Shown in pieces: positions 9,778 to 48,000 of a stretch of DNA of 64,000 nt. The translations under genes were made by a program, and so were the position numbers. A model generated the notes under the pieces. The model searched no databases and was not told the DNA's origin. It saw only the letters and a program-made list of their open reading frames with translations. Position 1 is the stretch's first letter. Every line of letters starts with the position of its first letter. Source of the stretch: Balanoglossus misakiensis (taxonomy: Eukaryota; Animalia; Hemichordata); assembly GCA_040954595.2 (NCBI GenBank), contig CM082593.2:7662043-7726042 (forward strand), given 5' to 3'.

Positions 9778-9918
9778 AAAACGTTTTAAAAAAAAATCAA
9801 TGTGTCATTTCCTGCTATTGTTTGTCGATGTTGTAGATAACTGTAAAAGAACACCGTAATCGTGGAAAACACGACCTAGGTCGCAAAACGTCACTACCGT
9901 CTTATATACAGGCTGTAG

Positions 9919-11467
9919 TTTGGAAGGATTTTCTTAACTGTGGCTAATTTATAAATTTAGAACGATATTTAGAAAGTGATAATTATCGTAAATATCCGAT
10001 ATATCGTCGGTAGAAAAATCTAATTTGGAAGGACTTTCTTAACTGTAGCTAATTTATAAATTTAGAACGATATTTAGAAAGTGATAATTATCGTAAATAT
10101 CCGATATATCGTCGGTAGAAATTTTAGTTTGGAAGGACTTTCTTAACTGTAGCTAATTTATAAATTTAGAACGATATTTAGAAAGTGATAATTATCGTAA
10201 ATATCCGATATATCGTCGGTAGAAATTTTAGTTTGGAAGGACTTTCTTAACTGTAGCTAATTTATAAATTTAGAACGATATTTAGAAAGTGATAATTATC
10301 GTAAATATCCGATATATCGTCGGTAGAAATTTTAGTTTGGAAGGACTTTCTTAACTGTAGCTAATTTATAAATTTAGAACGATATTTAGAAAGTGATAAT
10401 TATCGTAAATATCCGATATATCGCCGGTAGAAAAATCTAATTTGGAAGGACTTTCTTAACTGTAGCTAATTTATAAATTTAGAACGATTTTTAGAAAGTG
10501 ATAATTATCGTAAATATCCGATATATCGTCGGTAGAAAAATTTAATTTGGAAGGACTTTCTTAACTGTAGCTAATTTATAAATTTAGAACGATATTTAGA
10601 AAGTGATAATTATCGTAAATATCCGATATATCGCCGGTAGAAAAATCTAATTTGGAAGGACTTTCTTAACTGTAGCTAATTTATAAATTTAGAACGATAT
10701 TTAGAAAGTGATAATTATCGTAAATATCCGATATATCGTCGGTAGAAAAATTTAATTTGGAAGGACTTTCTTAACTGTAGCTAATTTATAAATTTAGAAC
10801 GATTTTTAGAAAGTGATAATTATCGTAAATATCCGATATATCGTCGGTAGAAATTTTAGTTTGGAAGGACTTTCTTAACTGTAGCTAATTTATAAATTTA
10901 GAACGATATTTAGAAAGTGATAATTATCGTAAATATCCGATATATCGTCGGTAGAAATTTTAGTTTGGAAGGACTTTCTTAACTGTAGCTAATTTATAAA
11001 TTTAGAACGATATTTAGAAAGTGATAATTATCGTAAATATCCGATATATCGTCGGTAGAAAATTTTAATTTGGAAGGACTTTCTTAACTGTAGCTAATTT
11101 ATAAATTTAGAACGATTTTTAGAAAGTGATAATTATCGTAAATATCCGATATATCGTCGGTAGAAATTTTAGTTTGGAAGGACTTTCTTAACTGTAGCTA
11201 ATTTATAAATTTAGAACGATATTTAGAAAGTGATAATTATCGTAAATATCCGATATATCGTCGGTAGAAATTTTAGTTTGGAAGGACTTTCTTAACTGTA
11301 GCTAATTTATGAATTTAGAACGATATTTAGAAAGTGATAATTATCGTAAATATCCGATATATCGTCGGTAGAAAATTTTAATTTGGAAGGACTTTCTTAA
11401 CTGTAGCTAATTTCTAAATTTAGAACGATTTTTAGAAAACAATAATTATCGTAAATATCCGATATAT
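9919..11467. repeat. Tandem satellite/minisatellite, 15 copies of a 104/105-bp AT-rich unit
   Basis: Unit TTTGGAAGGACTTTCTTAACTGTAGCTAATTTATAAATTTAGAACGATATTTAGAAAGTGATAATTATCGTAAATATCCGATATATCGTCGGTAGAAATTTTAG starts at 9919, 10024, 10128 ... 11382. Copies are near-identical and the last one is degenerate. Confidence 0.97.
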
Positions 11468-13918
11468 GTTGGTAATGTGTAGAGTATGATATTAAAACAA
11501 TGTTTCCATTGCACATCTGACTTTCATGTAGCCTTGGGAATAGTAATAGGCTACCGACCAGCAGTACTACCAACAGAACATAAAATCAACTTCTATTTGA
11601 TGGGATTCCAACTCACACTTATCTTTTTTAACCCAGTAAATTTCTTACCTGGAATGATAATCACAAAGTTTGTTTATTGATAAATGGGATTTGTTTTATT
11701 ACATGTTACCTTTGAAAACCCCTTACACTGACTGATAAAATAATATCACCTATACAATTGTGATATTTAATTGGAATGTACTTATGCACAACACTACACG
11801 TTGTTGTACTTACCTAGAACATATTCAGAAACAAACAATATTGCCTGGTAATAGTATGTTCACGAAAAGAATAGTCACAGCTTAGCACTGTATGGTATAA
11901 TACAGACAATGTAATAGTCACAGAAGGTTCCAAAATATAACAAAATGACATGAAACCCTACCTTTGACAATATTAAACTACTAGGATCTAAATATAAACA
12001 AAACTGATACTGCCGGCACAAGGAACACATTTTTCTCTTGATAGTTCTGTTTGGATCATGTGTACAGCTAAATGTCCATATTTTTGAAATTTACTTTATA
12101 AAATTAACTTGTACAGTAAAATGTTTATAAACAACTATGCATTTCCACACTAAAGAGACAGTAAACATCTGACTTACAAGTCGTTCATCTGTCATAAAGT
12201 CTGTGGGTATTTAAAAGGTTACATACAACACATTTGCTAGCAAGTCAAAGTACAAGGCGCAAAGTGTAAATGCTACAATGTACATCATTGGAAACTACAT
12301 GTATGATTATGGTTGTTTCTTTGTATTACATTACATCATAGGCAACAATACATTATTACTTTTTGTCACATTTCCAATTTACTTTGATATGACAAGTATC
12401 TGTAGGTAGGCTCTCCCTGAACAATGGGACTAATACCAATGGATTGTTTGTAAACAGAAAAGTTGCATGTGTGCAGTTTAGATGACCTTCCCTTTGTAAG
12501 TACAGCATCTTTTTTTATCAACTACACACTTAAGTCCTCAAAAATAATGACATATTTAATCATATGATTATTAACTCAAAGCCGGAAAGAACTTGTAAAA
12601 GGCAAAACCAAATTATGTGAATAAACTTTAAAAATGGAAAAAGTCAGATATAGTTGACTTAACTTTTCAACTGTTGCAGCAAATTGGCATACATTTATTC
12701 GCTACAAGAAAAGTGATATAGAATTCAGTATAGATTTTTGTACCCTCATAACTTATTGAACACTCGTACATAGTTGATAGCATTGTCGTTCACTTGGCTT
12801 AAGAACAAGACTGAATTTTTATAAAATAATTACAAAAATGTGTCAACTTTTTGAATTGAACATTAAGCCATAACCTGTACAAAAATTTGAAAATGACATA
12901 TAATATTATATTTGACAACTTGTGCAGATGTATTCACATATTTAAAAAGTGAAACAAATGAACACGAAATGGCTATGAAACACTTTGTGGTTTTCCTGGT
13001 ATCAGACCCATTGCAAGCAGTGTTATCCCGAGAATTACTAAAGAGTATCTGCTGACACCGTTTAATTTGGGGAAAAGATAATGATAAACTATATTGTTGT
13101 GCAAATTAGCCGATAACATATTAGAAATTCCTGGGGAGAACACTGCACTGTAAGTCATCTGAAATTTATATGATACATATATATTGAATATGACACTAAA
13201 CGTGAATTCTCTCAATTTGCTTTCACAGAGATGTAAAATAAGTTCTAAATAACCATCCATGGTAGTGAGTTTTCAGCTTGAAGGTTGTGATATGGCCAGT
13301 TACATACTCTGAATTGAAAAACACTAAAGTTACTTGCAATAAATTATCACAAGCTAGCCAACAGCTGCTGTGATACCCACTTCACAAATCTTGGAAATTG
13401 TTTGTAAACTGTTTATAGGCAATTGTTCATAAGTCAAACAAGATAAAATATCCTAAAATACACAATTTCCAATTTTGTCAATTTAAACAAACCAGCATAA
13501 GTATATCACAGGCATTGTTTGATTGACAGATGACAACAATTGCCTATCTGCTAAACTCTGCATCATTGACAGCAGAGCTAATCAAACTGGGTGGTGGGGG
13601 GGGGGGGGGGGAGATAATCATATAATTGGTAGCAATGGCAGCCTCCACTTCTTGTAGCTGTTATATTTTTATGTACTTTTGTCAGCTAATAACAATCCAC
13701 TCAGTGTTGGCCTACTCAAAATGTTTGAGTTATATGTTACTGCATGAGCACATCATCTTAGACATGATTCGAGATATGTAAAAAGTTGCACCAATGACAA
13801 AAGCATGGTTATCCTATTTGAACAAAATTGATTCTGCAGATGATGAGTCCTTCTGACATATGAGTGCAGTGTTACCTCAACAAAAATGGAGTATCAATAC
13901 AATTTCTACTTCATTAAC

Positions 13919-16900
13919 TCAAAAACTCGATGTAGAAATTTGTCTTCTGACTGGATGACCACACTTGCAGTAGACAACAGGGCTTCCAAGTGATGAAATT
14001 TCTGTTTTTAGGGGGCAGTTACCGCACTGATACTTTTTCAACTCTGTTACATCAAAAGCATTGCAGCCATTTTGAAAGTTGAAACCAACAAAGAATTCCA
14101 CACGTGTGTGTTCAAATCTCCTTCCATGAAGACTGCCTGCTCTTGGAACAAAGAAGCATTTGATGGTTTCAACGCCCTTCAACTTGCCAATGTCCATGTC
14201 AATTTCACCTGATGTACTTGTCTGACTTTTTCTTATTGTACCAGTCTGTCTGGAAAGAAGGGAGCGCACTTTATCACTCTCTTTCCAAGATCGGGAATCA
14301 TAGTTCCATTCGCCCAGTTCAAATTTATGAACAAGACGACGAATACCACTTCTTGATTCCACACCAAGCCATTCATTAGTACGACGTGGTTTGCTAACAA
14401 ACCGTTTTGCCCTTTCTAAAAGGTCCTTAAATCTCAAAGATTCAGCAAAACATTCTCTGGAACCTGACTGACCTTTGCTACCTAGTGCAAGCACAGTTAG
14501 CAATACATAACAGTAGTAGATTGCATAGGGTGAGTTAAACCTATCATGCCACAGCCGAACTCTCCTCAGTACTTCTTCTATTGCATAGACTTTTGACACC
14601 AGTTTGTGTCTTACAGCATGAAGCCATTCTTTCATATCTTCATCAATTGTTTTGACTGGTATACCTCTATCAAACACATCCTCCATATTTTCCTCATACA
14701 AAGAAATGATGTCTTCTAAATCACCCAGTTCGCTTACATTATCCATGTGGAGTTGAGCTCTTGTCTGCACATTCCTGTTGTATTTTATCCTGTATGCTGC
14801 AATTTTGCCCCTCCTCCCATTAATGGAACTTGTGTCATACCATGAACATAATGCTAGATTAACATCCTCGAACAAGACGTAATACCAATCTCGACATTTG
14901 AAAAATTGTTCGCTTACAGGTAATCCATCATAGCATTCTCGCAGAAGCATATCAATAGCTGAGAGTGATTCCTCAACAAACGAATCTACACAAGCTCCTT
15001 TCACAAAAGTGTGATATCCACCTTCAAAATTCTTCTCAATGAACTCAAGCAATTGGAGCCTTACTTCCATTTCATGAACATATGAGACTTCATCTTCGAA
15101 ACCCTCTTTGGTGTACTCTCTACACTTCTGAAATGCATCGCACGCTATCTTTGTCAAGTGAATGGACTCACTAACCAATCCTTCCAAGTCACTGTCTTTC
15201 TGAAAATTACTGGTTGTCCCCAATCTGCCAATTAACTTTGACAGCTCTCGCACAAAGACCAGGCCAAGCATGTCATATATACGTGTTAACTGAACATCCT
15301 TTAAGCCTTCATCTGAGCATGCAGAGCTCTCACTTGAATCCAGACCAGATGCCCCGCGGTGGCTTGCATGCTTACTACATTCCTCCAGCCTGATTTTAAT
15401 GGCTTCATACATAAGCTCCTTTGCTTTTTGAAAGTCCTCTCTCTCATTGGCATAGAACCTGCCAAGATGAGCAAGTGAACTGGGATCTTTCGGAAAGTTT
15501 TGTGACAAGAGGCTGAGTACATGTAGTCTTTCAGTGAACGGGGGTTTGGAGACAATATCCATAATAATTCGTGAATAAGTCGAACGCTTGAAGTGACTTA
15601 TTTGCCCACTGTAGTGAGTTTCTCTGTTGTTGCGGAAGAAGAAAGTGGCTCTCATTATGTTCATTATTTCAGGAGATATTGCCTGAATTTTGTCATGCCT
15701 ACATCCTGCTTCTTCAATAAACTGACATGCAAAGTTCTCAAGACCCTTCCTAGCATCCAATGAAAGTGATACTGAACTTTCTCTTTTATGCTCACTTGGG
15801 CAAAGAATTTGTTCTAATATTTCTTTAGCCACAGCATGCAGATTAATTCTCCAACCATTCTCAGTTTCACATACAAACTTCTTGGCCTTAAACGGAAGCT
15901 TTACCACAGACTTTTCACTGACTTCCAGTATTCTACAGAAAAACTGCCCTGGAATATGCATTTGGCCATAGTAATACACAAATGCCAGATATCCTATGAC
16001 CCGTTGCCATGCTGTCAATTCTTTGGATGGGTCAATATTCAGGTACCCTGCAACATACGACTGTGTGCCTCTAAATTCATAGTCATATGCAGTCAATCCA
16101 AATTCATACACGCAATGGGGATTTCTTCCCTGTGTCACATCAGTCAAGAGCTCCTTCAACCCTAGTTTTGCTTTCCGTGGACAATTTCCAGAAAATACTT
16201 TCTCAAGACATATTGCTTCGTTGCCACTAACTTCATCTTTAAGCCATACCTTATTACCCTGGACTGCCTTTGTAATGGGACCAACATATCGTTGGACATA
16301 GAGAATGACAACTGGTACTTCTCTTGAGCATACATTCAACAACCGTGTCACGCCAGAGATATCCTTGTAAATAAGGCTGTCTATGAGGACAAGCACTGGT
16401 AAGTAGGTTTTATCGTGGAGCCAACTGATTCTTTGAGCAACCTCAGCCATCATAACTTCTGAGGATTCAGTAGTAACACAGACACATGGGCAGATTCTTT
16501 CTAAATGTATGTCCCATAGCAACCTTCTTCCAACAGTGGTACCCCCAGACCCTGGAGCATGGTATAGTGAGCTAACAAGTGACCTGCCTTTCCTGATATT
16601 GTCTTGAACAAGGTATTTCAGCTTGGAATATATCTCTCTTTCTATATCAAAAAGATGTAGTTTGACCTCATACCACGGTAAAAAACCTCCCCTGAGGAAT
16701 TCTTTCCCCAAATCTTCCTCATTTACGCTTGCGGACTTGTGATCATAGTCCAAGTATAAGACATCAAAGAATTCTTTCAGCCAGGCAGCATCTTTGGGGG
16801 CAATCTGTGTCTCAATCATCTGCTCTTCCATGAGTGCGGGTAGTTTAAACAGGCCCCCCTGCTTTTCATCTTTCAGTTCTTCCCACAATCTTAGACAGAG

Positions 16901-19900
16901 ATACTCAAATGGAATGTCATGTACGGATTCCTGTGGAACCTCTAGGTATTCAAAGTTGCGTTGTAGCATAGGTAATGCTTTACTAGACAATGAATCCTTA
17001 CTGTAACAAAACACCGACTTCAGAGCTGACATCCTCTCATCCAATTTCTCCAAAATGATTTTTAGACATGGCAGTAACATTTCAGATGAATACCACAATA
17101 CAACCACTGTCACAGGCTTTCTCCTGTGGGTAAATTCTGCTAACTTCTGACAATGTTGTTCAATCAATATGCCAATGGCTTTTCGCCATTCTCGCTCGCT
17201 AGTAGGGTTTCCTTCACGTGTATTGGAACCATTGACAAAGCACCACTCAGTTGCTTTATCAGATAACTCTTTCGGGTGATCATTACAATTTGAAATGTAA
17301 AGACTTCTTTTGTTCCTAAGTGGTTCTTCACAAACGGAAAACAATCCACTCTCACGACTTTCAGGGTCTAAGTCAAACACCTTTACCCATGGTATATTAC
17401 TAAGGGCAGCAACATATGGTGTCTCAATAGAACACGGGCCTGTTATCAAACAATATGCCCTGCCATCTTCAAAGTTATCTACACTTTCCATAAATTTTCC
17501 CCAAATATCAGATTTTATGCCAACATCTAAAGCAAACCCTGATGGACAGCCCTTTGTAAACCATGAATACACTTTCTGATTCTCCTCGGGGGATTTGGCA
17601 ACTTTGATCCCCGATCTAGAATCTCTGTAGAATACATCATTCAGTTCCCACAATCTATTACGATGACATTTTGTGGAATAAATCGGTGCTGTTGATGTAT
17701 GCGAGTTTGAAATTATGATCACCCCTACAGTCTTGCCATCTACCTGCTTTTCAATGTATTTGAAGGTTGGCCTTTCATTGAAAAAGCTGTCATTGAACAA
17801 GCTTTGGTAATATTCATCATCTGTAGACTGACTTAGACCAAGCATATCATGTGGTGGATGGGACTTTTCAACAACACCAAGAATAATGTAACTTATAGCA
17901 TGATTTGGAGTGTTCCAAAAGCTAACAAGATCTCTCATGAATTCCCCATCTTCATCCGTACGGTAACTGCCAGCTTTGTACTGTATATAGCTATTTTCAC
18001 AGTGTCTAAGCAAATGAGAAAATGTTTCCTCACATGTCAGATTGTAGTCTTCCAGTATGTTAATTACATCCTCATTTGATTCATCTTTCAATAACTGGCT
18101 TTCATCAACCCTTTGTGGCACATTTAAGGAGACATTATGTGCTCTTATACAAATCGGGCCTTGTTGTTGAACAGATATGCCCATACATGCCTGTTGCTCT
18201 GTGCTAGTTGTAGGAACATATGCAAATTGTTCAACCACACTTTGACCCTTCATGCCATACTGGTTTTTAATCTTAACTGCTGATGATGGTGCTTTTGCCA
18301 GTTTTTGCTTTCTCGTATATCTCTTCCAAGCATATTTGGGTTTACCATTGCTACCAATATTTGATTTTGACTTTTTACTATACATCCCCTTTCCCGTCCC
18401 GCCCCTGCCTTTTCTATATGAAGGAATTTTACTTTGCATCACTTTCCCTTCCAATTTGTGACTTTTAGGAATGCCAGATTTATGAGGTTTCTGTTTTCGC
18501 ACAACCTCCCATTCACAAGAGTCTTTATCAGAATCAGAATCATCTTCAAATTTGGAACTATCAACACTTATACTACAGTTATCCTCAGATTCCTCATCTC
18601 TGTAATCTGTATCATCAGAATCATTCTCTTCAATGGAAAAATCTTCCGTTTCACTATACACATGAGATGTATTTTGGGATTCTATTGCAGGCATTTTCTT
18701 TTTTTGACGTCGGTATAATGCATGAACTACAACGCTTTGCCCTCTTTGAGCCAAAGTAAACCACTTTGGATGTTTTTCAAGAAAAGACTTCATACCCCCA
18801 TATCCGTGATCTTTAAACTTCTGTTTGTCTTTACCACTGCACTCTTTGTCAAAACTTGTTGCAAGTTCATTCAGGGTCATTGGTTTTGCATCTGGACGAT
18901 TTTCTGGGTTAACCAAGGAGTGAAGCAGCAGTAACAAATCTCCTTCTGTCATACCCGAAGATTTCCTCTGTCGAGCATCTGGAAATCCCACAACAATAGC
19001 TGAATTTTAGATTACACAGTCTCATTGAAACTCGGCCACAAATGGTGGACAATAGCATATTGCAATTGAAAGAGTATACGTGATGTACATATATATATAT
19101 TCATCCACCCTGAAGTAATTATTGTTACTCCTACGTAACGATTGCCCCTTTCATATTTTTTTTATGTTTGTAGTCACAAATTTAAAAAATATTTGGGAGC
19201 TGTTCTTAAAGAGTATTGACTTCAAAGAAATGTTTCAGTTTTACCATCATTTTGTTTTTTTTATGTTATTTTAAAGGAGTATGACTCACCCTATAGTCAG
19301 TTAGTTATAAAACATATTCAATGAAGAATGTGCAACAAAATCAATTTTCCTGAACATTTGTACAGCTAGCAAACAAGCTCTGTTTTCAAGAGAGCTTAAG
19401 TTGCCTTCTGAAAGAGGCACTTGGGATTACAATTGTGGCTTATGAATCTACTTGAAAACAAAATTCATCTTACCTGATTGATGACTAGCAGCTGCATCAG
19501 CTTGTCCAGCACTTTGTACAATGGTATTGTGGTCACCAACTTGAACATTTTCACAGTCTTGTATGACAAACATGGGTAGTTTTAACTGAGCACTTACTGC
19601 AAGACAAATTTAAAGTGCATCATGTAGAAGATAAATTGTTTCCATCTTGGGAATATCCTTCCAATATTACAGTTAAAGGTATATGGTCACGTATGGAAAT
19701 TTAGCTACAGACAGTTATCATGGCAAATTGAGATCTAGACAATTCTAGATTTTCATTGGGTGGCACACACGAATAAAAGAGAGCCATCATATGTTCTTTA
19801 GAAAACTTAAATACGCCATTTTGCCATTTATGGACATATTTAAATTGGAGGTGACTATGTACCTTTAACACATCCTTTATTCATTCAGCAATGTCACCAA

Positions 19901-22574
19901 TTACCAAGGACTTCTGCAATATGCAACAACAATCTACTGAATTAAACTTTTTACCAAAGTGTAAACAGCAATAATATGTTGCGATTACATTCTTCAAGTT
20001 GACGTAAACAGATACCAGACCAACTAAGTAGACCTTAGGGGTACTACACAGAGAAAGTTACATCAGTAAAGCAGTAAATACCTGTGGGCAAACTTGAACC
20101 GGTAGTCTCTTGATATCTTTCTCCATCTGCAGCGTCTAAAAAAATAAACAATAAACATTCCTTTCAATGAAAATCTATGAAAAACATTCCTTTCATACTT
20201 TAAATACCATGAACGCCATAAAATCAATGAATTTATAAATTAAACCACTTGTATTTACTGCTTTGTAACACCTATCGAAATCGACCACACCAAAATTTTA
20301 AGACAATGACAGTTACCTGCTACTTGTAGGTTATAGATTCCAAAGTTTTTAAAATTTGATTACATTAAAACAATTCCCCACTTATTAAATATCAACAACA
20401 GTTTATGATTCAGACTATAAAGCTTCAAAATTCAAGAGTGTTTAAATTTACAAATTACCTTTATCTGCACCACCTTTTAATCCGATATGATACCACACAT
20501 TGCTTTCAGCAATGACTTGTTGCTCTTTCAGTGTCAGTCCATCAACCAGCTGTGACAATCAAAACACAGGAAATATAGTTTTTTTCTTTATTGTGAAACT
20601 TTGCACATCAGAAAGATGACAAAATTGTTTTTAGAAATAATTCATAGGGAAAATACTATAATTATATTAATTGCTGTTATTGAGATTCACTGACCTTTTT
20701 GCCATTGCCAAGGAAAAAACTTCCACTCACAGAAACCTGTCGCTCATATTTCACAAGTTTCCGCAGACAGCTGGCAGAATCTTGTGGTTTTACAGAAACT
20801 GGAAAAATTCCACCTGGTAAGCCATGCAAATACAGTGTAAATGTCCTGCAAGGAGAAAAATCATCTTGCTGTGAGGAACGTTTCCCATACTGTTGCAAGT
20901 GAAGATAAGTCTTGGTAATTCTTACATTTTGATGATATACATGTATTATGAAGTAAAAGAAAGTATGCGTTAGATACAGCCCACATGAACTAATTATTCC
21001 CAACAACTGCTAGAAAATACTCAGTTTACTGTAAAAGTGCTGTCATTTTCTCCTAAAATAGGACAAGGATATCTAAAGAAAATTTCCTAATGAACAGACT
21101 TTGTTATATTGCTATAACACATTAAGAGTTATCTTACCTACAATTGACACTGCTGTCATGGTGATTATTCTCAACCATACACATAATACAAATTTCTCCT
21201 TTGGATTTAATAATCACAATTATTCATGCAGGCATTACTAAAATATAAATAAAAACAAACAACAATGAAATCAATGACACATATAACCATTTTATGAAGT
21301 GTACATGCTCTTGAATTTGAGTGGTAACCCTGTGGTATTCACATATGAAATGTTTAAGTACACTTCTGTAATTTGGAAATTACAATCTGGAAAATGCAGT
21401 ATTTATAAATTCTGCAAGTCTTATGTGTGATTAGGAGGGTCAATATAAATCAATTACCACGCCCCCTCAGGTTGTAAAGCTCTGGCAAACCGCACATAAT
21501 CCCCTACATTAACGCTCTCTGGGGTTACACTGACTCACGGTCACTCCACGCAGTGATTGACCACAGGGGGTGCTCCCTCCATGCTTTTATTGTGTGTTTG
21601 TTTGTTTTGTTGTCGTAATTGATTGGCATAATAAACAAATACATATTTGCCCGGAGAGGTTTCCCCAGACCCTCTTTCTGGAGTGCCCAACGGAAGAAGC
21701 AGAGGGCTCTGGGTAACCGAGACTATATCCCAAACATAATTTGCATTTGTGACCTCAGTAACCGCTCAATGACCTTACAAGAACAAGCCAATTATTAACA
21801 TAAAACTGATTTGAACACACATACATTATTCGGCCAACTGAACACACACAATTCGAGAATCTAGTAAAGTTAATTTCAGACTACATTAAGTTAATTCTAA
21901 CACATTAAAATTATTATAACATAGTTTTGACGAGAGCGGGCCTTTCAATTTAAATGTTACTATGTTGATTTGAAAAAAATGACGCAATGGCTTATGACGC
22001 AGCTCGCAGCCATGCAATAGTTGTGGAGTTGGGGTAGGATTTAGGCTAAGGATCGGCTTAAATTACCCTGACCCCGACCCTAACCATTCTATCCGACCCT
22101 AACCTTATTATTAGAACTGATTTGATGCCTGATTATACCCTTGCCTAACGTACCTAATAAACCCTGGGTATAAATCCCACGGACCGCGCCACAATTGCTA
22201 GCTAGGGACAAACCGAAAGTAAAAAAAAAGTGTTTGAAACACTTCTACGTAACATAATGCACCAAGATTCTGATCTATGTCGTTTGCATATAATCGTTGG
22301 CAACGAGCACATCCATTTTATCTCTGTATCAACATGAAACATCGGAAATCATTTTTTATGGTTGACCAAGGCAACTTGTGTGAGTAATATGGTATAAATT
22401 GGAAAGCAGACATGCGCACAAATAAAGGGCCCGCTATCCGGGATACGTCACGTACAATGTCGAGTACACTGCAATTGGACCTTTTTGTGTGCCATGGGCA
22501 CAGTCAAAAGCTCCAGACACATAAAAGACTGAGACTTACCTCCGCAAGCACACGGACGCCACTATTTCCGCCAT
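13919..22574 (-). CDS. SAMD9-family STAND NTPase with N-terminal ubiquitin-like, RHIM-like and LOTUS-like modules (~1844 aa)
   Basis: Exons 22574-22540, 20845-20695, 20549-20459, 20135-20082, 19596-19474 and 18999-13919. All introns are GT-AG with compatible phases (2,0,1,1,1); total 5535 nt. SAMD9-type motifs in the last exon: ENSYIQYK...SFWNT...YIILGV (AlbA_2/Schlafen-like), IPWVKVFDLDPES (SIR2-like), LYHAPGSGGTTVGRRLLWDI (Lys-less Walker A, cf. SAMD9 LYHHPGCGGTT), LPVLVLID (Walker B), AHLGRFY (TPR region), VEFFVGFNFQNGCNAFDV (OB-fold end). The last exon is secure; the first exon is less certain. Confidence 0.85.
19673..19868. mobile_element. TTAA-flanked MITE family B (AGGTATA..GTCAC termini), in an intron of the SAMD9-like gene
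   Basis: TTAAAGGTATATGGTCAC ... GTGACTATGTACCTTTAA. Homologous copies at 57183-57375 (inverted) and ~9335-9500; degenerate copy at ~44510-44630. Confidence 0.8.
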
Positions 22575-22825: not shown

Positions 22826-25800
22826 CACTTTCACTGCGTAGTTAATATATGCTAATGTATTCCTGTGTGTAGTTTCCTATGGTAAATTTAACTAATAAAC
22901 AATGTTTTACTTTACCCTCTCTATCTCTTGTAATATGAAAGTATATGCAACGATATTTCCAGCAAGTATATTTTATAAGACAACCAACATAATAAAACTG
23001 AAAAATGGTCACATGACCATTAATTGGTCATGTGACACTGGCAGCCATAATGGATTTCTGTCGAAATATGGTAAAAACAACAGATATTGTAATATAAGTG
23101 ACTGAAATACTGTATTTAATTCATTGTATCACAGCTGACAGACAAACATAGTCAAAAACAACTTCCCCCTGTATAAAAGGGAATAACAAGTGACTTTTGA
23201 GCAAGAAATTTGATCAAATTTATTAATGGACCATAAAAACAATTATCAAATTAAAGCTGCAAGCAGCATTGTCGGGCCCAAGCGCTGATCTTGAATTATA
23301 TATGCACAGTATGAATGAGAAGAAACATAATTTTCTATCGGGTGTATTATCTCATGACATAACAAGGGTGTATGTATTTTTGCTGCTGAAATAGGGTAAA
23401 GTAGGTCAAAGGTCACCTGAGGTCATCCAACATTTGGGCAAAAATTTTTGACCCATGCTGGGCCATGTCCAACAAAAACCAAAACTCTAGCTCTATTGGT
23501 TCGCGTGTAATTAGGTATGTGCATATTTAATGAGGTCAGCAGGTGTCACAGGTGAGCCAAAAATTTGGCTTTACATTTAGGTCCCATCCTGCCAAATGCC
23601 AAGGCTGTATCTGCTCTGGATGTTGAGATATGCGAAAGTAGGTCAAAGGTCACCAGAGGTCACCCAACATTTGGGCAAAAAATTTTGATCCCATACAGGT
23701 CCATGTCCAACAAAAACCAAACCTCTAGCTCTATTGGTTCGCCTGTAATTAGCTATGCACATAATTAATGAGGTAAGCAGAGGTCAAAGGGGTCATGGAA
23801 AGTAGCAAAATATTTTGATCACACACTTATCCACATGCATCAAAAACCAAACATCTAGCCCTATAGGTTAGCCTGGAATTAGATATGCAGAAATAATAAC
23901 ATGTGAAAAGTAGGTCAAAGGTCATGTGAAAAATCGCCAAAAATTTGTAACATATTTTAGTCACATGACGATTGATATCCATACAAAGAATTTCTATGCT
24001 ATCAATGTTTAGAGTAGAAAAAGGAATTTCAATTTTTCAATGCTTTTTACAAAATCCAATATGGCCGCCATAATCTTCCACCAATCACAATGTTCTTTGC
24101 AAACTTGATAGACAGCAGTGTAGTGACCATACTCGCCGAATCTTGTGACTCAGTTATCGCCCGTTCTGGAGAAGAAGATTTGGGGAGTTTTACTATGGTT
24201 TTTCGAAAATCCAATATGGCCGCCATAATCTTCGACCAATCAAAATGATCTTCGCAAACTTGATAGACCTCAGTTAGGTGACCCCATACCCCAAACCGCG
24301 TGACTCTGTTATCGCCGGTTCTGGAGAAGAAGATTTTTGAAATTTTGACCAGATTTCAGAAAAACAACTGTAGCAAAAAAACTGCAACATTGACAGCAAA
24401 ATATCCAATTACAAAAATGATGGGCAGAAGGTACACTACCAGCACGCCAAATCTGAAGTAAATCTGACTTGTAGTTTCTGAGATCTGAGATTTGCATTTT
24501 TTCAGAAAATCCAATATGGCCGCCATGTCACGTGACTAATTAAAAATTCATGGGTTCAATGCACGACTACTCATTGACCTTGACCACTGTAGCAAGTTTG
24601 AGAACTGTACCTGCAGCGGTGTCTGAGATCTAGAGCGATAAAAAATGGACAGGAGAATAAAGAAAGAAAGAAAGAAAGAATTAAAGCTGCGAGCAGCATT
24701 GTCGGGCCCAAGCGCTGATCTTGAATTATATATGCACAGTATGAATGAGAAGAAACAGAATTTTCTATCGGATGTATTATCTCATGACATAACAAGGATG
24801 TGTGTATTTTTGCTGCTGAATTAGGGTGAAGCAGGTCAAAGGTCATCTGAGGTCACCCAGCATTTGGGCAATTTTTTTTATCCATACTGGTCCATGTCCA
24901 ACAAAAACCAAAACTCTAGCTCTATTGGTTCGCCTGTAATTAGGTATGTACATATTTAATGAGGTCAGCAGGTGTTACAGGTGACCCAAAAATGTGGCTT
25001 TACATTTTGGTCCCATCCTACCAAATGCCATGGCTGTATCTGCTCTGGATGCTGAGATATGCGAAAGTAGGTCAAAGGTCACCAGAGGTTACCCAACATT
25101 TGGGCAAAAAATTTTGATCCCATACTGGTCCATGTCCAACAAAAACAAAACCTCTAGCTCTATTGGTTCGCCTGTAATTAGTTATGCACATAATTAATGA
25201 GGTCAGCAGAGGTCAAAGGGGTCATGAAAAGTAGCAAAATATTTTGAGCACACACTAATCCACATGCATCAAAAACCAAACGTCTAGCCCTATAGGTTAG
25301 CCTGGAATTAGATATGCAGAAATAATAACGCGTGATAAGTAGGTCAAAGGTCATGTGAAAAATCGCCAAAAAATTGTAACATATTTTAGTCACCTGACGA
25401 TTGATATCCATAAAAAGAATTTGTATGCTATGAATTTTTAGACTAGAAAAAGGAATTTCAATTTGTCACTGCTTTTTACAAAATCCAATATGGCCGCCAT
25501 AATCTTCGACCAATCACAATGCTCTTTGCGAACTTGATAGACATCAGTGTAGTGACCATACTCCCCGAATCTTGCGACTCAGTCATCACCCGTTCTGGAG
25601 AAGAAGATTTTTGCAGTTTTACTATGGTTTTTCGAAAATCCAATATGGCCGCCATAATCTTCGACCAATCACAATGATCTTCGCAAACTTGATAGATATC
25701 AGTTAGGTGACCACATACCCCAAACCCCGTTACTCGGTTATCACTGGTTCTGAAGAAGAAGATTTTTGAAATTTAAGCCAGATTTCAGAAAAAAAATTGT

Positions 25801-28800
25801 AGCAAAAAAACTGCAACTTTTACAGCATAATTTCCGATTACAAAAATGATGGGCAGAAGGTAGTCTACCGGCATGCCAAATTTGAAGTCGATCTGACTTG
25901 TAGTTTCTGAGATCTGAGATTTGCATTTTTTTCAGAAAATCCAATATGGCCGCCAGGTCACGTGACTAATTAAGTATTCACAAGTCACTGCACATCTACT
26001 CATTGACCTTGACCACTGTAGCAAGTTTGAGCAGTGTACCTGCAGTAGTTTCAGAGATCTCGTTGGCCGAAGAATTGACAGGAGAATAAAGAAAGAAAGA
26101 AAGAAAGAAAGAATTAAAGCTGCAAGCAGCATTGTCCGGGCCCAAGCTCTATTATCTGATCTGATATTAGATATGCACATAATTAATGAGTAGAAACATA
26201 ATGCTCTGTTTTATCCCATGAAATATCAAGGTTATATCTATGTTTGGTGTTGATATAGTGTAAAGTAGGTCAAAGGTCTCCCAGGGGTCACCCACAATTT
26301 GGGCAGAAAATTTTGACCCATAGTGGTCCATGTCCAACAAAAACCAGACCTCTAGCCCTTTTGGTTAGCCTGGAATTAGGTATGCACATAAATAATGAGT
26401 TAAGCAGGTGTCACAGGTGATCCAAAACTTTGGCTTTTCATTATGGCCCCATACCTCCAAACGCCAAGGCTGTATCTGCTGTGGATGTCGAGATATGCAA
26501 AAGTAGGTCAAAGGTCACCCAAGGTCACCCAACATTTGGGCAAAATATTTTGACCCCATACTGGTTCATGTATAACAAAAACAAAACCTCAAGGTCTATT
26601 GGTTCATCATTAATTAGGTATGTACATATTTAATGAGGTCAGCAGAGGTCAAAGGGGTCATGAGAAGTAGCAAAATTTTTTGATCACATACAAATCCACA
26701 TACATCAAAAACCAAACTTATAGCCCTATTGGTTAGCCTGGAATTAGATATGCAGAAAAATGATGCGTCAAAAGTAGGTCAAAGGTCATTGCCAAAATTA
26801 CCAAAATATTTATAGCTTATTCTTGTCATATGATGATTCATATCCATAAAAAGAATATCTGTGCTATCAATTATTAGGCTAGAAAGGGAATTTTTACTTT
26901 TTAATCATTTTTCACAAAATCCAATATGGCCGCCATAATCTTCGACCAATCACATTCATCTTCGCAAACTTGATAGACATCTGTTTAATGACCATACACA
27001 CCAAATCTTGTGACTCGGTTATCGCCGGTTCTTGAGTAGAAGATTTTTCAAATTTTACTAGGGTTTTTCGAAAATCCAATATGGCCGCCATAATCTTGGA
27101 CCAATCACTATGATCTTCGCAAACTTGATAGACATCAGTTAGGTGACCACATACCCCAAACCCCGTGTCTCGGTTATCACCGGTTCTGGAGAAGAAGATT
27201 TTTGAAATTTAGGCCAGATTTCAGAAAAAAAATTGTAGCAAAAAAACGGCAACTTTGTCAGCATAATTTCCAATTACAAAAATGATGGGCAGAAGGTAGT
27301 CTACCAGCATGCCAAATTTGAAGTCGATCTGACTTGTAGTTTCTGAGATCTGAGATTTGCATTTTTTCAGAAAATCCAAGATGGCCGCCATGTCACGTGA
27401 CTAATTAAGTATTCACAAGTCACTGCACATCTACTCATTGACCTTGACCACTGTAGCAAGTTTGAGAACTGTACCTGCAGCGGTGTTTGAGATCTAGAGC
27501 GATAAAGAATGGAACCAAGAATAAAGAAAGAAAGAAAGACAGATTAAAGCTGCAAGCAGCATTGTCCGGGCCCAAGCTCTATTATCTGATCTGATGCTGA
27601 TATAGTGTTAAGTAGGTCAAAGGTCACCCGAGGTCACCCAACATTTGGGCAAAATATTTTGACCCGATACTGGTCCATGTATAACAAAAACAAAACCTCT
27701 AGGTCTATTGGTTCATCTGTAATTAGGTATGTGCATATTTAATGAGGTCAGCAGAGGTCAAAGGGGTCATGAAAAGTAGCAAAAATTTTTGATCACATAC
27801 AAATCCACATACATCAAAAACCAAAATGATAGCCTTAAAGGTTAGCCTGAAATTAGATATGCAGAAAAATGATGCGTCAAAAGTAGGTCAAAGGTCATTG
27901 CCAAAATTACCAAAATATTTATAGCTTATTCTTGGCATATGATGATTCATATCCATAAAAAGAATTTCTGTGCTATCAATTTTTAGGCTAGAAAGGGAAT
28001 TTTTACTTTTTAATTGTTTTTCACAAAATCCAATATGGCCGCCATATTCTTCGACCAATCACATTCCTCTTCGCAAACTTGATAGACATCTGTTTAATGA
28101 CCACACACACCAAATCTTGTGACTCAGTTATCGCCGGTTCTTGAGAAGAAGATTTTTGAAATTTTACTAGGTTTTTCGAAAATCCAATATGGCCGCCATA
28201 ATCTTCGACCAATCACAATGATCTTCGCAAACATGATAGACCTCAGTTTGGTGACCACATACCCCAAACCGCGTGACTCGGTTATCGCCGGTTCTGGAGA
28301 AGAAGATTTTTGAAATTTTGACCAGATTTCAGAAAAACAACTGTAGCAAAAAAACTGCAACATTGACAGCATAATTTCCAATTACAAAAATGATGGGCAG
28401 AAGATAGTCTACCTGCACGCCAAATTTGAAGTCGATCTGACTTGTAGTTTCTGAGATCTGAGATTTGCATTTTTTCAGAAAATCCAAGATGGCCGCCAGG
28501 TCACGTGACTAATTAAAAATTCAAGGGTTCAATGCACGACTACTCATTGACCTTGACCACTGTAGCAAGTTTGAGAAGTGTACCTGCAGCAGTGTCTGAG
28601 ATCTAGAGCGACAAAGAATTGACATAAGAATAAAGAAAGAAAGACTGAAAAATTCCAACGAAACCAATAGGGCCCAAGCCTGGCTTGGCTTGGGCCCTAA
28701 TCATGCCCACCATTTACATGTATACATGTTTAAAATCTGAGAAAGAAATATAGATTATTAGTGAAAAGGTGAATGATTGAACTTGTGAATAAATAATAAT

Positions 28801-33839: not shown

Positions 33840-34741
33840 CTAAAGTTCTTGACCATACTGGTCGTCGTCTTGCATGTACATCTGCAGAACCCTGAAGGAT
33901 CTCGACTGAGAACCGGGATTGGAGTAGCCATGGTAATGCATTTCACCGCCTGGTTGCTGACCAATGTATCGGGAGCTCGCTTCGCCGGGGCGGGGTGTTG
34001 GCCTCTTGTCGTGGACGGTCTGGTACACAGATGATCCGTGGTCCACGAAACCTCGGTTACCCCTGAAAGTGTTCAGATGTTTGCCCTGAATGCATATCTT
34101 AGAAAACAAAACAAATAAACAAGCAAGAAAACAAACAAACAAACAAACAAACAAACACTCAGACAGACAGACAGACAGACAGGTAATCGAACTTAGCGCT
34201 AAAGCTTCACAACATTCTTGAAAACGTAATCCGGTAATATGGTAGATTAAACTTAAGAAATAACACAGGTCATTCGAAAAAGACTATAAAGAAGGATTAT
34301 TTGGTAATATGGCAGATGTCAATGCGCTCCCGTGATTTTCATGTTTAATTAATGAAACTATGTGAAAACAGCGCAGCTAGCTCACCCTCCAATAACGCCT
34401 GCCTGCCCAGGCTCAACCATATCAGACGTCTGTTCCTGGAACGCGTCGGCAACATTGCCAGCTGAATATAAACTCACTGGAGAGTTATACTGCAGATGGA
34501 CAACTTGAGCTGTGGGACTGAGATGTTCCTAGTGAAGGAAATAAGAAAATGACAACATAGATTCTGTGTTCCCATTGGATCAACGCTCAATCAGACGGTG
34601 AACCTCAAGCACAAGATGTATGCAATTCACGCCTAAGAGACAATAAACTATATGAAGTTGTGTTGTAATTAGAATACATCTGATGGAGATCAGTCCGTAT
34701 GTGATGTCTGTATGGAAGACAGACAGACAGACAGCGGACAA

Positions 34742-34772
<31 letters not shown>

Positions 34773-37700
34773 ACACATGATTGTCATTTTCTATTCCATC
34801 ACTCACATGAGTAACTGTAAAAACATCTTTTTTGTTTAGCTATAGCATATTAGAATAGCTAATTTAGCTGTAATTTAAGATGCCGCTAATTCAAAATTTG
34901 CTTACCATGGTTGACTGAGATGTCTTCATAGCTAAATTAAAAACCCACCAATGTACTGAGAATCCAAATTCGCCAAGAAAGCATGCAATTAATTCAAAGT
35001 GTTTTTACATTATTTTGTCTTTGTTGATTTATCACCTCCGAACCCTCACCTTTTCAGGGGTAACTTCTTCAGCGCCGTGTGTTGGATCAATGCGACGATA
35101 ATAACTGGGCATCTTCGATGGCTGGTGGTGTGGGTGATACTGCGGTTCTTTGGTGATCTCCACTCTCGGGGAATTGTCTCTGGATGTGGATCCGGCTGGT
35201 CGGAACTGGGGCGATCTGGCCGACGTTGGGTCGTATCCATAGGTGAAGGGTTTCTTGTCCTTTTGCTGGTTCGGACTGGTGACCGGTCTGAAGGGTGGAG
35301 TCGTTGCTGGCAATACTTGGCGTGGTTTGGGCTGTCCGAACGGCGTTGGTGGCGAGTAGTTGTCCGCGTAGGAGGGAGAGTGACCAGTCGGGCGAACTGG
35401 TTGGTACGTTTTAGGGGTGTAGTGTTGTTGGGGTGGTGGGGGTGGTGGAGGTGGTGGTGGAACGTATTGCTGTTGTTGCTGGTATTGGGGTTGTGGCGCC
35501 ACCTCTGGTGAAGCTGTCGGAGACTGGCCCTTTTTGTCGTCTGTCCCGATTCTGCAAAATTTCAAATAAAAGTGACGTTGACTCGTCTCGCGGCCTCAAG
35601 TCGGACCCAAACTTCGAGATAAAGTTTCAACTCTGACCGGGCAATTGTTCTGGTCAGTAAATGTTCTCGCCTCATTTCAGTCAAAGGGTTCAAGAGAGCT
35701 GTTTCAGAATATAATGTACATATTTAAATCTGAATGAGTTAAATAATAAACGGATGCGGCACCCGTTAATTATTTAACATATTCAGATAGGTACATCCAC
35801 AATCAGAGGTTGATAATATGTTTGTTTATACATGGACCGTTCTAATTCAGTCAGTAAAATCACTAAAATAATCTTAAAAATTGGCAAAACAATTGCGCCA
35901 ATCTCATGACCAACAAGAATACTTGCCTCATCAGTGAAAGAAAGAGATCGCCTTTGATTTGACGAATTCTCTCTTGAGCTTGACTCAGTGTCATATCAAA
36001 AGTAGGTGTTCCATTGATTGCTGTTAGGAGGTCGTCTTTCTTAATATCAGCTTTGGCAGCTTTGCCACCGGCTGTGGTCTGTCGGGAGAATAAATAGAAA
36101 TGTTTGTTTTGAGAACATTTACTGTGTACGGTTAGCCTGATGATACCACACCCACAACGACCATGGATAAAAGGGCAGCGAGAGAAAGACTTTGTCCCTT
36201 TAAACCACAGCTGGACACTTTTCTTTATATGCCACCGTGACATCCGTACATTTTTTCACAGTGGTGTCTGCCAATAGCGCCATCAAGTCAAACATTGCCG
36301 GAATGTTACATAGATCGATGGTCGCTGGGCCCGCCGGTGGCGCCTGCGCAGCACCAGCAGACTCTTTTTGGGAGAGAGAGAGAGCGAAGGACCATAATGC
36401 ATTTCCCCAAGGTTTAAAATTTAAAATTTCCTTTCGTGCGTGCGTGCGTGTGCGTGTGTGTCTGTATGTATTTGTCTATCCTCCGTCTTGCATGCAGTGT
36501 ATGACGTTAAACCACACTCCACATTCTTACAGTTTAATAAATGCCAAACTCATTTAAGTAATAGGAAGGAATGTTGTCTTACTAGTATTTGCTGATAAGT
36601 GAGTGTCTCATACGTCACGTCGTGTTTTCTGTTCTCAAGACATCATATGCAGAATTATATTACTGGTTTATACTGGAATTTTATTTCATTTTGCACTTAA
36701 TTATTAAGATCACAGAACGGAATATTTGAAGCATAATACTGTGGTTTAATTTCAGTCGAGAAGACTTCGCCGATGATAAGAGCTAAATAGTGAAAGTAGG
36801 GAGTTTGTGTAGTAGCTCAATGGGGTAATCCAATGGATGTGTGTGTATCTCTTAGCTAAATGTTTTATAAATATTTGTGTAAGTTTTATTACAAGTCGAA
36901 ACTACTTCTATTAAAAAACAAAATCAACTGTTATCCATTTCAAGGATATTCACATACCACGAATAAATATATATTCCAAATCAACACAACCGCTTGTTCA
37001 ATCATCCGGGTCTTATACTAGAATATTTTTAACATGGTCAGGGATGTAGACGCATAATTCGTAAGTGACTTTGCAGTTGTTGTAATGTCGGAGAATTTCA
37101 AAAGATTTATTGACAGATGGAGAACTGGATATGACAGGTGCTTGGGACAACAGCTGTTCAGTACAGATAATTCCGGTCTTACTTGCATTTTGGAGATTTT
37201 CCAGCAAATTAAGAGACTTCACTTACTGTAGAGACATGCATTGTCGGCTTAATAATTAAAGAAAGTAGCATTTTTGACAATCTACTTAGCAGCGTTATAC
37301 CAAGATCTACCTCGTGACCTTCACGTTGCCAATAGGGCACACTGTCCTAACAGTGAGCCAGATAATCGCGTCACTGACTGATACGTTTATACATCAATGC
37401 TTGGCAGGGCCTCATTTCTGGTGGCCTTTACAAAACATGACGCCGCTGGCGAATATTTTACGGCCTACACCCACAAACGGGTATTAAAAAGCAACACGCC
37501 GTTGGGTATTTTCTGCTTTGATACGAAGGATCGCTGCTATGTCATGCGTCATGACGTAAAGATCGTGACTGACCGCAACATTCTTGCATTAAAACACTCG
37601 TCTTTCAGTCAACAGACAAGTGCGTGCGAGGGGCGACGGATATCGCCTTATGACAAGAACACAGCCATAGAATTGTGAATCTGAGACCGGCAAATCGTTG

Positions 37701-45086: not shown

Positions 45087-48000
45087 ATGACGGAACAACT
45101 CTTCGCCGTAACCCTTGAGTGTCCACCGCCGTGGGGATTTCGATTGGCCGGTGGCATTGATTTCAACCTGCCGCTGACTATCTCTCGGGTGAGTGCATCA
45201 AGTATTGTATATTTATATTGGGTATCGAATTGTGCCATGCTTTAGTTTTCTGCCTGTTTTAATAGAAATAAGACAGTCGCCGATCGTCGTATACTAAATC
45301 TGTAATATATCGACGTCCCGTGATGAGTCGATCGCACAAACGGCGAATTACTGGGTCATCGGGGGTTGGGAAGGGGTGGTTGCGGAAGCGATGATCATCT
45401 CCGCGTCGTCTGGTTGCACACAAAGTGGGAGTGGTCCCCTAAAATGCAAATTATTACAGAACTTGTCAACAGCTGAAGTCATACAAGTAACCCATTGTTT
45501 TCGGGTAAACTCACTGAACAGTCCACAAAGAGACTCACTGTGAGTTTCGTTTGGACTTTTCTCGACTTTCTGACTCGACTATCCAGTCAGTACTAAGTTT
45601 GGTGGACTTTTTTTAACCAACTGTGGCTGGAGATGATGACCCAGCCTGTTGTTAAACTTGCTATCAGCTGTTTGACGGTGATCCATTCCCCATCACTGGG
45701 CCTCCCCAGCTCCAATGCCCTTCGAGCTCACATGAATTGTCACTCTCCCAAGTCTACTTTTTTCCCGTCTAGACCACATACACTTTAAACGCGAACAGGT
45801 GGATTTTTAATATACGGAATGCACGAAAACTAGCATGTATGTTCCACATTTTAATTAAACGGAAAGGGTATGGCCTATAGTCTATGAGGATTGTCATGTC
45901 GCCCACATACTTCCCATTCTTGAGTGCATTCTTCAAGACTTTGTGTTCTTGAAGACTGTATGCATGAAAACCAGCACGTATGAAAGAAGTGGCCCTCTCA
46001 TGATTAAATCTCTTGGATAAACTACTAAGAAATGTGAAGGAAAAAACGTTCAATAAGTAGCAGGGAAGAGATTAGGGAATTATGTCGTCTGCTAGGGTAA
46101 CAGTTGTAATTAATCCTCTTTATTTAGAGCTGATTAGCACTCCAAAATAAGCACTACAACCTTTTCCTTGACCAACCATATGCAGCTTTAGTCATCTCAG
46201 AGTCCGGATAACCTAAAATTTTAGTAGTATTTTTTTTACTTATGTTACTTTTGGCCAAAAAAAATAATTGTGGGATTCTATAAATAACCAGACCTACCCT
46301 ATTTTAAACCTGCCAGTCGACCCTAACCTTTTCATAGGTATCATGGTATGTCAATGTGGAATTTAAAAAAACATAATTTCTACAATACAAATACTACAAT
46401 GAAATGCCATTGATAATTGCACGCATGTTTTGATAAATAAAAAAATATATAAATAAATAAATAAATAGACAAAAAATGACCCCCAAAAATTATTATCCTA
46501 CAGTACTGACCTATTGTATTTCTCAAAAGCATATTGTTGGAGCAACAGAATTATTTGTTTAGTTTTATTTTTGGGGGTAATTGTGTGTGATATTCCTGCA
46601 CTCTTACCCAAATATGTAACTATTATATACATATGGCAAAAAAGAGAGAATTAAAAAAAAGAACATTTTCATGTGCATAACTCATTTTTACCAGGGTGTG
46701 GGTCTGGAATAAAAATAATTGATTTGGTTTGTGTTCATCCTTAATTATAAGTATCTGACTGGAGGCTGGTGACACAGACAGTCGCTTAGTGTTTTTACAA
46801 AGCCTTGCATTGTCTGTGCCAAAACTCTCAACTGTGAGAGTGTCAGCTGGGATCAGGTTAGCTCAACAGGTCCACATATTGACTGTAATCCTACACAATC
46901 TTTCTATGGTTCGTAGCTGTCGTCATTCACTAAACTCAGACTGTGCCAAAATAAACTGTTCTCAGCCTGAACCAATCACACTGAAGATATAGTGAAACTG
47001 AAAAGCTTATCAAAAGGACCTTGAGAAAAATTCCTTGCCACCACATTATACAGTATACAGAATTAATTTTCACTGGCATTTAATTTCACAATTTTGAACA
47101 CAACATTATATAGATCTACATGTACATATTGACGAGCTATGACATCAGGTTGTTTCCTGAATATGGCCAGTCAATATGTGATTTATAATAACACACCTTT
47201 TGGAATTTATGTTCAGAAGGTGGATGACATGGTACCATGTCATCCACCTTCTATGGTACCACTCAAGAAGTTTGAGTACAAGCAAACTTTGCTGCCCAGA
47301 CATTATTTAAGTCGTGCCATGGGAGCTTATTTGTTTATATCAGAAACTATGCCTGTACTGGAATTTTAAACTAATCCTGAATAGACCTGGGGAATTGATT
47401 TTGCCTTCACATGGATTTTTAACTTTGATTAGTGAGGATTATTGTGGTAAATATGTCTCCTGGCATTTTTGACCTCAAATGTCAGGGCTGGAAAAAAAAA
47501 TAGTTCTGGGGTGCTTCCAAATGTTTCTTACTTGATCAAGTGCGGACTGTGTCATTGACAATGACACAATTTTTTTCTCTCTTCTGCAGGTAACACCAGG
47601 TGGTAAGGCATCTTTGTCTCATATTCTACCGAATGATGTGGTGCTGCGTATTGATGGAGAAGACACAAGTCACATGACACATCTAGATGCACAGAACAAA
47701 ATAAAGAATTGCATGGGAGAATTAAGTCTTACTCTGTCAAGGTTGGTTATTCTCTGTTCAACTTCTGTCTGTGCTGGTGTTTATGCTTTAACCCTTTCAC
47801 CCCCATGGTTTGGTCCAAATCCATTGTTTTCTATGGTAAAGTTGGGACCTCTATTAATCTATAGAGGGAACTGGGGGTGAAAGGTTTAATGTACTAATTT
47901 CTACAGAGTTTATCCAATAGCTCTTTTCTCAGTGGTGCAGAGCTTTGAATGGAAGAATTGTTTGATGAGAATAGATGCATGGATTATGCATATTCATATT

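Follow-up and report, generated by a model that had tools for sequence, protein, structure and literature searches.

Cleavable ubiquitin-like domains (UBLs) with known proteases are few, namely those of SDE2, FUBI and the ribosomal fusions. SDE2 is cut by USP5 despite an identity to ubiquitin of less than 20% (PMC13572447), and FUBI, which is 36% identical to ubiquitin, is cut by USP36 (PMC8354635). A criterion for the SAMD9 family is a STAND P-loop with GGT/S replacing GKT/S together with an upstream His (PMC5445408). A model of SAMD9 activation has been presented (PMC13245274), and STAND architectures with a RHIM or prion motif are described from fungi and amphioxus (PMC4262963). We analyzed a 64,000-nucleotide stretch of the hemichordate Balanoglossus misakiensis (assembly GCA_040954595.2, contig CM082593.2, positions 7,662,043 to 7,726,042 of the forward strand; hereafter the window, numbered from its first letter), the minus strand of which carries a gene model for a SAMD9-like protein with the domain order UBL, RHIM, LOTUS-like, AlbA_2 and STAND core. 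A UBL cap ending in di-glycine (GG) on a RHIM-bearing SAMD9-family protein is a real, conserved and apparently undescribed feature of hemichordates and amphioxus.

The joined UBL is 76 residues long, beginning with Phe at 20841 and ending with Gly at 20469; in the window model, about 13-16 leader residues come before it. The whole model, assembled from six exons, is open over 1837 residues. When candidate splice sites between 22700 and 18900 were ranked by a crude score, the donor of the 22574-22540 exon, which joins in frame, came top of 271, and the intron inside the UBL had the donor ranked 6 of 271 and the acceptor ranked 10 of 207. Read-through of this intron (20694-20550) leads to a stop after five codons. 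The RefSeq protein XP_070545015 (P0002) of Ptychodera flava is uninterrupted across the equivalent junction, and an older model from Branchiostoma floridae (P0008) breaks off at the exact residue of the window intron, which suggests that the intron is common to the amphioxus and window genes. The exon join 20695/20549 had been proposed in an earlier note on this DNA; with canonical splice ends and homology across the junction in P. flava, it is strongly supported as real. Within the 64-kb window, the gene model matched its own exons only. An out-of-frame ATG lies 8 bases upstream of the probable start and opens a six-codon reading frame (22582-22562, minus strand), which overlaps the start and could dampen translation.

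Aligned without gaps, the UBL shares 16 residues with the commonest ubiquitin unit among the matches and 17 when Pro19 of human ubiquitin is used, which is the count that the note had given. Shuffled sequences fell below this: over 20,000 shuffles the identity averaged 5 and never exceeded 14, and the local score of 62 (21.8 +/- 3.9 for shuffles) was reached by none of 5,000. The gap-free alignment itself is seen as the note had described it, but its register is probably coincidental, since the orthologs need a one-residue indel. The identity of the hemichordate UBLs to ubiquitin is about 21-22%. A two-species UBL profile matched single ubiquitin chains in PDB (E 7e-5 to 1e-2), and the B. floridae UBL exceeded the Pfam ubiquitin cut-off (27.0 vs 25.4 bits), which the hemichordate UBLs alone miss (E 0.088 for P. 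flava). Together with the shuffle test, these matches support the assignment of a ubiquitin-like fold. An AlphaFold2 model of the P. flava UBL, built with family sequences only, had a mean predicted local distance difference test score (pLDDT) of 66 and showed strand-strand-helix-strand with the last strand unresolved. Foldseek with this model found nothing at E <= 0.001 (best 0.19), and all 44 rows listed were ubiquitin or NEDD8 entries. Single-sequence fold prediction was of low confidence (pLDDT 39.5), and an Atlas query, which we take as a lead only, returned unnamed clusters at 0.90 and ubiquitin/SUMO-like clusters at 0.88-0.89. Thus, a ubiquitin-like fold is well supported by sequence but only weakly by the P. 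flava model.

P. flava is the nearest relative (57% over 1,110 columns) and the sister of the window protein in the core tree with support of 100/100. The UBL of its XP_070545015 ends in LRGG followed by ADND, and a second P. flava record is the same. A scan of 1.84 billion representatives with the UBL profile gave 172 matches at E <= 0.001, of which 150 were listed. Among the matches listed, the best domains after P. flava were those of two amphioxus proteins (46 and 45 bits), and the best ubiquitin-type domain scored 39 bits and the next 26. A word-index search with the P. flava N-terminus returned only P. flava among 167 and 526 candidates; the amphioxus members were recovered by the full profile scan. 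B. floridae XP_035693897 has the UBL, LQGG, SDKD and a Death domain. XP_078612583 from a Branchiostoma hybrid, which can be aligned to residues 1-337 of the window model at E 3e-33, has the UBL, LLGG, SDKD, a RHIM-like motif, a LOTUS-like domain and SAM. Different domains thus follow the common UBL-GG in the two amphioxus proteins, and the adaptor behind the cap is exchangeable. The older B. floridae model P0008 combines the first half of the amphioxus UBL with a Death domain and SAMD9's C-terminal half, a composition that would tie the amphioxus UBL to a SAMD9-like locus. In amphioxus, the annotated models place 65-157 residues ahead of the UBL, and this upstream sequence had no counterpart in the window (best E 0.18). 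In the SAMD9-like core, amphioxus and the window are separated by 1.3 substitutions per site. The database orthologs are all truncated or split models, and the window holds the only intact copy in the comparison. In P. flava, two near-identical UBL-GG copies are present, one model of which stops inside STAND while the other goes out of frame within the RHIM, either through errors of assembly or because the duplicates may be decaying.

We compared the UBLs of the window, P. flava and the two amphioxus proteins. Their tails are LKGG, LRGG, LQGG and LLGG, so that L73, G75 and G76 are fixed and position 74 is free (K, R, Q, L). Between the phyla, 24-29 of about 75 UBL residues are identical. Among the 76 positions, 19 are invariant across the four members and 9 of these equal ubiquitin, including L73, G75 and G76; if sites are treated as equal, these three would all be invariant by chance with a probability of about 0.25 cubed, or 1.6%, by hand calculation. 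The residue after GG is Ala or Ser and never Pro in the four members, all of which keep [AS]-D-[KN]-D at this place. The last residue of this motif straddles an intron, and splice consensus may contribute to its conservation. The window and P. flava share 12 of the last 16 UBL residues, compared with 4 of 25 in the adjoining linker. Conservation of GG across orthologues, on which the note's idea of processing depended, is thereby found in two hemichordate and two amphioxus sequences.

As a control for GG, we used 146 listed matches of the UBL profile with the P. flava and amphioxus members left out, which gave 711 complete domains, 413 of them distinct. Of the near-ubiquitin domains, 73 of 84 had retained GG, as against only 4 of 83 domains with <= 29 of 72 body identities; three of these four belonged to a single shark OAS-ubiquitin protein. 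All four family members keep GG, at 14, 14, 28 and 25 body identities to ubiquitin (of 72). Since GG is kept in 4 of 4 members compared with 4 of 83 equally diverged control domains, the L-x-G-G tail is very probably under selection. The tail residues of ubiquitin lie outside the fold and serve enzyme recognition. In the Carcharodon carcharias model P0151, an OAS-ubiquitin repeat protein of 2277 residues, diverged internal UBLs have retained RLRGG, a second antiviral case in which such tails persist.

Behind the tail, the RHIM-like VQVG fits the (I/V)Q(I/V)G core and scored 19.5 bits with Pfam RHIM, 0.5 under the curated cut-off of 20. The RHIM would lie near the new N-terminus if the tail were cut: the note had placed it about 30 residues away, and the measured distance from GG to the core is 38 residues. 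Across the UBL-bearing members this distance is 38, 34 and 61 residues. The annotated relatives from lamprey and scallop are without a UBL, and 26, 26 and 44 residues precede their RHIM core. Since the RHIM is equally near the N-terminus in these UBL-less relatives, its exposure alone is probably not a trigger, and their resemblance to the cut product favours maturation over triggering. Members of this SAMD9 subfamily from hemichordates, amphioxus, lamprey and scallop all have a RHIM-like motif followed by a LOTUS-like winged helix.

A fixed L-x-G-G with a free position 74 and a small next residue is the pattern that GG-reading proteases need, and cleavage after GG by one enzyme or another is rather probable on these comparisons. 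The statement of the note that retention suggests processing is a fair inference given the conservation of the tail, although the cleavage itself is predicted only. We tentatively prefer, without calling it probable, the reading that the UBL is a removable cap. A host ubiquitin-like protease that tolerates the missing Arg72 would cut after the second glycine. The new N-terminus, the acidic and conserved [AS]-D-[KN]-D, would stand 34-61 residues ahead of the RHIM, which is the layout already present at the start codon of the UBL-less relatives. Once matured, the protein would act as a STAND sensor that oligomerizes upon activation, an amyloid signal being nucleated by its RHIM. We infer such RHIM amyloid signalling by STAND oligomerization from the fungal and amphioxus architecture and the SAMD9 activation model. 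The UBL, the architecture and the pattern of conservation are observed; the cleavage, the class of the enzyme, maturation as the purpose, RHIM signalling and an antiviral role are putative.

Several points weigh against a removable cap. Position 72 is G, G, S and G in the four members, which thus have no Arg72, and Arg occupies this position in 397 of 409 LxGG tails of the control matches (not deduplicated, mostly true polyubiquitin). A small residue at position 72 is NEDD8-like. In SDE2, the R73A change at the Arg72 equivalent abolishes cleavage by USP5, and what follows the cut had no influence on it (PMC13572447). Because Arg72 is absent in 4 of 4 members, ordinary USP5-type processing probably does not apply if the site is cut, and the proposal of the note that host ubiquitin-specific proteases (USPs) cut the tail is weakened. 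Glycines are also well kept generally, 8 of 10 in the UBL between the window and P. flava. The control was collected with the profile of the UBL family itself and is not a census of integral UBLs, and the four sequences represent two lineages rather than four independent trials. Conservation runs on beyond the predicted cut, as it also would in a linear motif that stays uncut, and the lamprey and scallop models may merely miss upstream exons.

One alternative is that the UBL is integral and uncut, the tail and the acidic residues forming a binding motif or a tight turn, while the family-specific surface of Y4, P14, V15, K18, K49, L54, Q59, N66 and H70 binds either a partner or the core of the protein itself. 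A private binding surface is suggested by the ten invariant positions, out of 19, at which the family departs from ubiquitin. Furthermore, Arg72 is gone, the Ile44 patch is remodelled (44 L/W, 68 W/A/M, 70 H), and the conservation continues through the site into [AS]-D-[KN]-D. We consider an integral UBL only somewhat less likely than the cap; against it, domains so diverged rarely keep GG (4/83), and fixed L73, G75 and G76 around a free position 74 are what GG-reading proteases require. Another possibility is that the tail is a tripwire for pathogen proteases: host USPs would ignore it for lack of Arg72, and promiscuous viral or bacterial LxGG deconjugases would cut it and thereby license the RHIM-STAND protein. 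The fixed LxGG and the absence of Arg72 in 4 of 4 members agree with this, as does membership of the host gene in an antiviral family. Coronavirus papain-like proteases (PLpro) read LXGG (PMC7464072). In a standard substrate peptide, Ala comes after LKGG and Thr occupies the place of position 72 (PMC9086436), the window likewise having LKGG-Ala. Herpesvirus enzymes cut both ubiquitin and NEDD8 (PMC7464072), and the tail of the UBL in the antiviral avian OASL is cleaved by OTU and PLpro enzymes of viruses (PMC8764230). However, the RHIM is equally exposed in the annotated relatives that have no UBL, so that uncapping need not activate, no FIIND match was found in the window exons scanned with Pfam, and the site is conserved, not variable. 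The known tripwires CARD8 and NLRP1 are fast-evolving and act by FIIND-based functional degradation, and Ala or Ser at the new N-terminus is presumably not an Arg/N-degron, both of which count against a tripwire. We regard it as improbable.

It is very improbable that the cut releases a free modifier conjugated to targets in the manner of ISG15. A cut would expose a C-terminal GG, and FAT10 is charged by UBA6 without the tail arginines of ubiquitin. The avian OASL conjugates through a similar tail (PMC8764230), but it retains the full LRLRGG, unlike the UBLs of this family. Arg42 and Arg72, whose loss the note had taken as evidence against charging by the ubiquitin-activating enzyme (E1), are indeed both absent (42 F/T, 72 G/S, 74 K/R/Q/L with Q or L in amphioxus), and the E1-recognition residues Arg42, Arg72 and Arg74 with the Ile44 patch do not occur as a set in the four members. 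The released modifier that the note had listed among its options is weak for this reason and because the amphioxus UBL is internal, behind 65-157 residues of other sequence. Finally, GG might be a neutral relic of a recent capture of ubiquitin, or the exon join an artefact of prediction. Every database ortholog is truncated or split, which would suit this explanation; on the other hand, only 14 of 72 body identities are left although the tail is intact, the same domain and tail occur in amphioxus, and annotated proteins of two phyla read across the junction. A relic or an artefact is thus largely refuted by the sequence comparisons, and its remaining likelihood is slight.

Three further functions were considered and dropped: a motif binding inhibitor-of-apoptosis proteins at the new N-terminus (A-D-K-D has no hydrophobic fourth residue), conservation of a caspase site four residues beyond GG (Pro is next in P. 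flava) and a proteasome-shuttle role of the Rad23 type (the Ile44 patch is remodelled).

The remainder of the protein places it in the SAMD9 family. It aligns over its full length with proteins named SAMD9-like, and its core matches the structure of human SAMD9 at E 2.1e-6. The STAND P-loop GGT at 16561-16535 (minus strand; H816-T824 of P0001) is invariant in 9 of 9 aligned relatives. The LOTUS-like winged helix (about 18892-18746, minus strand) matches Pfam WH_Egal weakly at E 0.036, and the AlbA_2/Schlafen domain (about 17998-17615, minus strand) matches SLFN_AlbA_2 at E 7e-7 with 30.2 bits against a cut-off of 25.3. SIR2-like, TPR and OB regions had no Pfam match in the window protein, with weak TPR and S1 matches in relatives, and these labels follow the description of the family (PMC5445408). 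No SAM domain was detected in the window protein. AlbA_2 aligns well with that of bacterial relatives; by eye, three acidic positions were kept and the second was Gln in the window and P. flava and Lys in the lamprey; the mapping of these positions to published site residues (PMC12680541) is inferred. Since one acidic position of the four is replaced by Gln, nuclease activity is uncertain, and the protein may act mainly through the RHIM. Eighty metagenome loci (L001-L080) carry prokaryote-like AlbA-SIR2-STAND cores with 23-30% identity, many of which align over most of the core and start directly at AlbA. The UBL-RHIM region was unmatched among these 80 loci (best E 0.46).

Features of the gene model in the window, listed in the direction of transcription
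Feature	Position	Strand	Description	Support
Leader exon 1, probable first coding exon	22540..22574	-	ATG 22574-22572, 35 nt, phase-2 donor, 12-residue leader	inferred
Alternative leader exon, possible	21138..21237	-	in-phase ATG giving a 14-16-residue leader	acceptor 3/207, donor 4/271; UBL unaffected
UBL exon 1	20695..20845	-	151 nt, ubiquitin positions ~1-49	53% identity to P. flava P0002 residues 19-71, E 2.5e-14 (tblastn)
Intron inside UBL	20550..20694	-	145 nt, GT-AG, phase 0, after position 49	canonical ends, ortholog continuous
UBL exon 2	20459..20549	-	91 nt, positions 50-76 and 3 post-GG residues	68% to P0002 residues 70-100, E 3.4e-10 (tblastn)
LKGG tail, predicted cut site	20469..20480	-	next residue Ala 20468-20466	L, G, G invariant in 4/4 family members
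Exon 3, weakly conserved linker	20082..20135	-	top-scoring acceptor	4/25 identical to P. flava
Exon 4, RHIM-like motif	19474..19596	-	core VQVG 19546-19535	Pfam RHIM E 7.2e-4; 14/22 identical in P. flava
Last exon, 5 kb	13919..18978	-	LOTUS-like, disordered, AlbA_2/Schlafen, SIR2-like, STAND, helical repeats, C-terminal OB-like, CxxC pair	1695-residue open frame

Elsewhere in the window, a tandem array at 9916-11474 consists of about 15 copies of a 104-bp unit with 97% matches, and four dispersed two-copy blocks of a 154-155-bp repeat lie at 24033-28319, upstream of the gene. A scan of 20 of the 45 long open reading frames found exons with PDZ, DUF4749 and LIM at 33840-36255 (minus strand), 47536-47880 (plus strand) and 57904-58293 (plus strand), and their presence on both strands suggests two neighbouring PDZ-LIM genes.

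The domain survey of SAMD9 proteins mentions no ubiquitin, RHIM or LOTUS in its main text and three supplements (PMC5445408). It covered a B. floridae protein with the coordinates of P0008, for which only Death, AAA and TPR are given. Neither ubiquitin nor RHIM occurs in the main text of PMC12680541, and neither SAMD9 nor RHIM in the part of PMC8195603 that was searched, its source-data architecture tables being outside the search and possibly bearing on the point. Full-text literature searches, whose scope excluded most subscription papers, found no link between SAMD9 and RHIM in the papers searched and, judging by titles and the openings of abstracts among the papers listed, no such tripwire sensor.

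If the tail is cut, this UBL would add one cleavable domain on an innate-immune STAND protein, and its tail without Arg72 points to a different protease. The gene would further connect the SAMD9 family with RHIM amyloid signalling, an effector route absent from the family papers searched; the subfamily concerned extends to molluscs and lampreys. Were the protease that of a pathogen, animals would have a route for sensing deubiquitinase activity itself. Pathogens could hardly escape such a tripwire, since their enzymes must keep reading the ubiquitin tail, and the protein would be an ancient deuterostome SAMD9-family sensor wearing a ubiquitin mimic.

Among the known systems, SDE2 resembles the window protein in having a strongly diverged ubiquitin fold before the working protein, a conserved L-x-G-G and conservation past the cut site, GGKGG in its case; it differs in keeping and needing the Arg72 equivalent and exposing a Lys N-degron, whereas the family of the window protein has Gly or Ser at position 72 and would have an Ala or Ser N-terminus (PMC13572447). 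SDE2 moreover serves in splicing and replication and is no STAND protein of immunity, and its cutters are USP5 and, in S. pombe, Ubp5/Ubp15. FUBI-eS30 (FAU) and the ubiquitin-ribosomal fusions also have an N-terminal UBL ending in GG, the removal of which matures the partner (PMC8354635), but FUBI starts at Met1 and is closer to ubiquitin, at 36%, whereas the window protein has a leader and a partner of about 1,750 residues. SAMD9/SAMD9L and the bacterial Avs9 share AlbA_2, the STAND GGT P-loop and the order of the core; the N-termini in the family survey are DEATH-superfamily, SAM and kinase domains, in contrast to UBL(GG)-RHIM-LOTUS-like in the window (PMC5445408). The avian OASL likewise has a GG-ending UBL in an antiviral protein that some viral deconjugases can cleave, but its UBLs are tandem and C-terminal, carry the full ubiquitin tail and conjugate, whereas the window has a single N-terminal UBL without Arg72 (PMC8764230). 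The fungal NWD2 and the amphioxus RHIM-NACHT protein BF82280 carry a RHIM or prion motif N-terminal to STAND and repeats, as the window protein does, but they are of the NACHT type, the window protein having a SAMD9-type core and a GG cap ahead of the motif, and the word ubiquitin is absent from the main text that describes them (PMC4262963). If it is cut, the window UBL would work like that of SDE2 or FUBI, but it lacks Arg72 and belongs to neither family.

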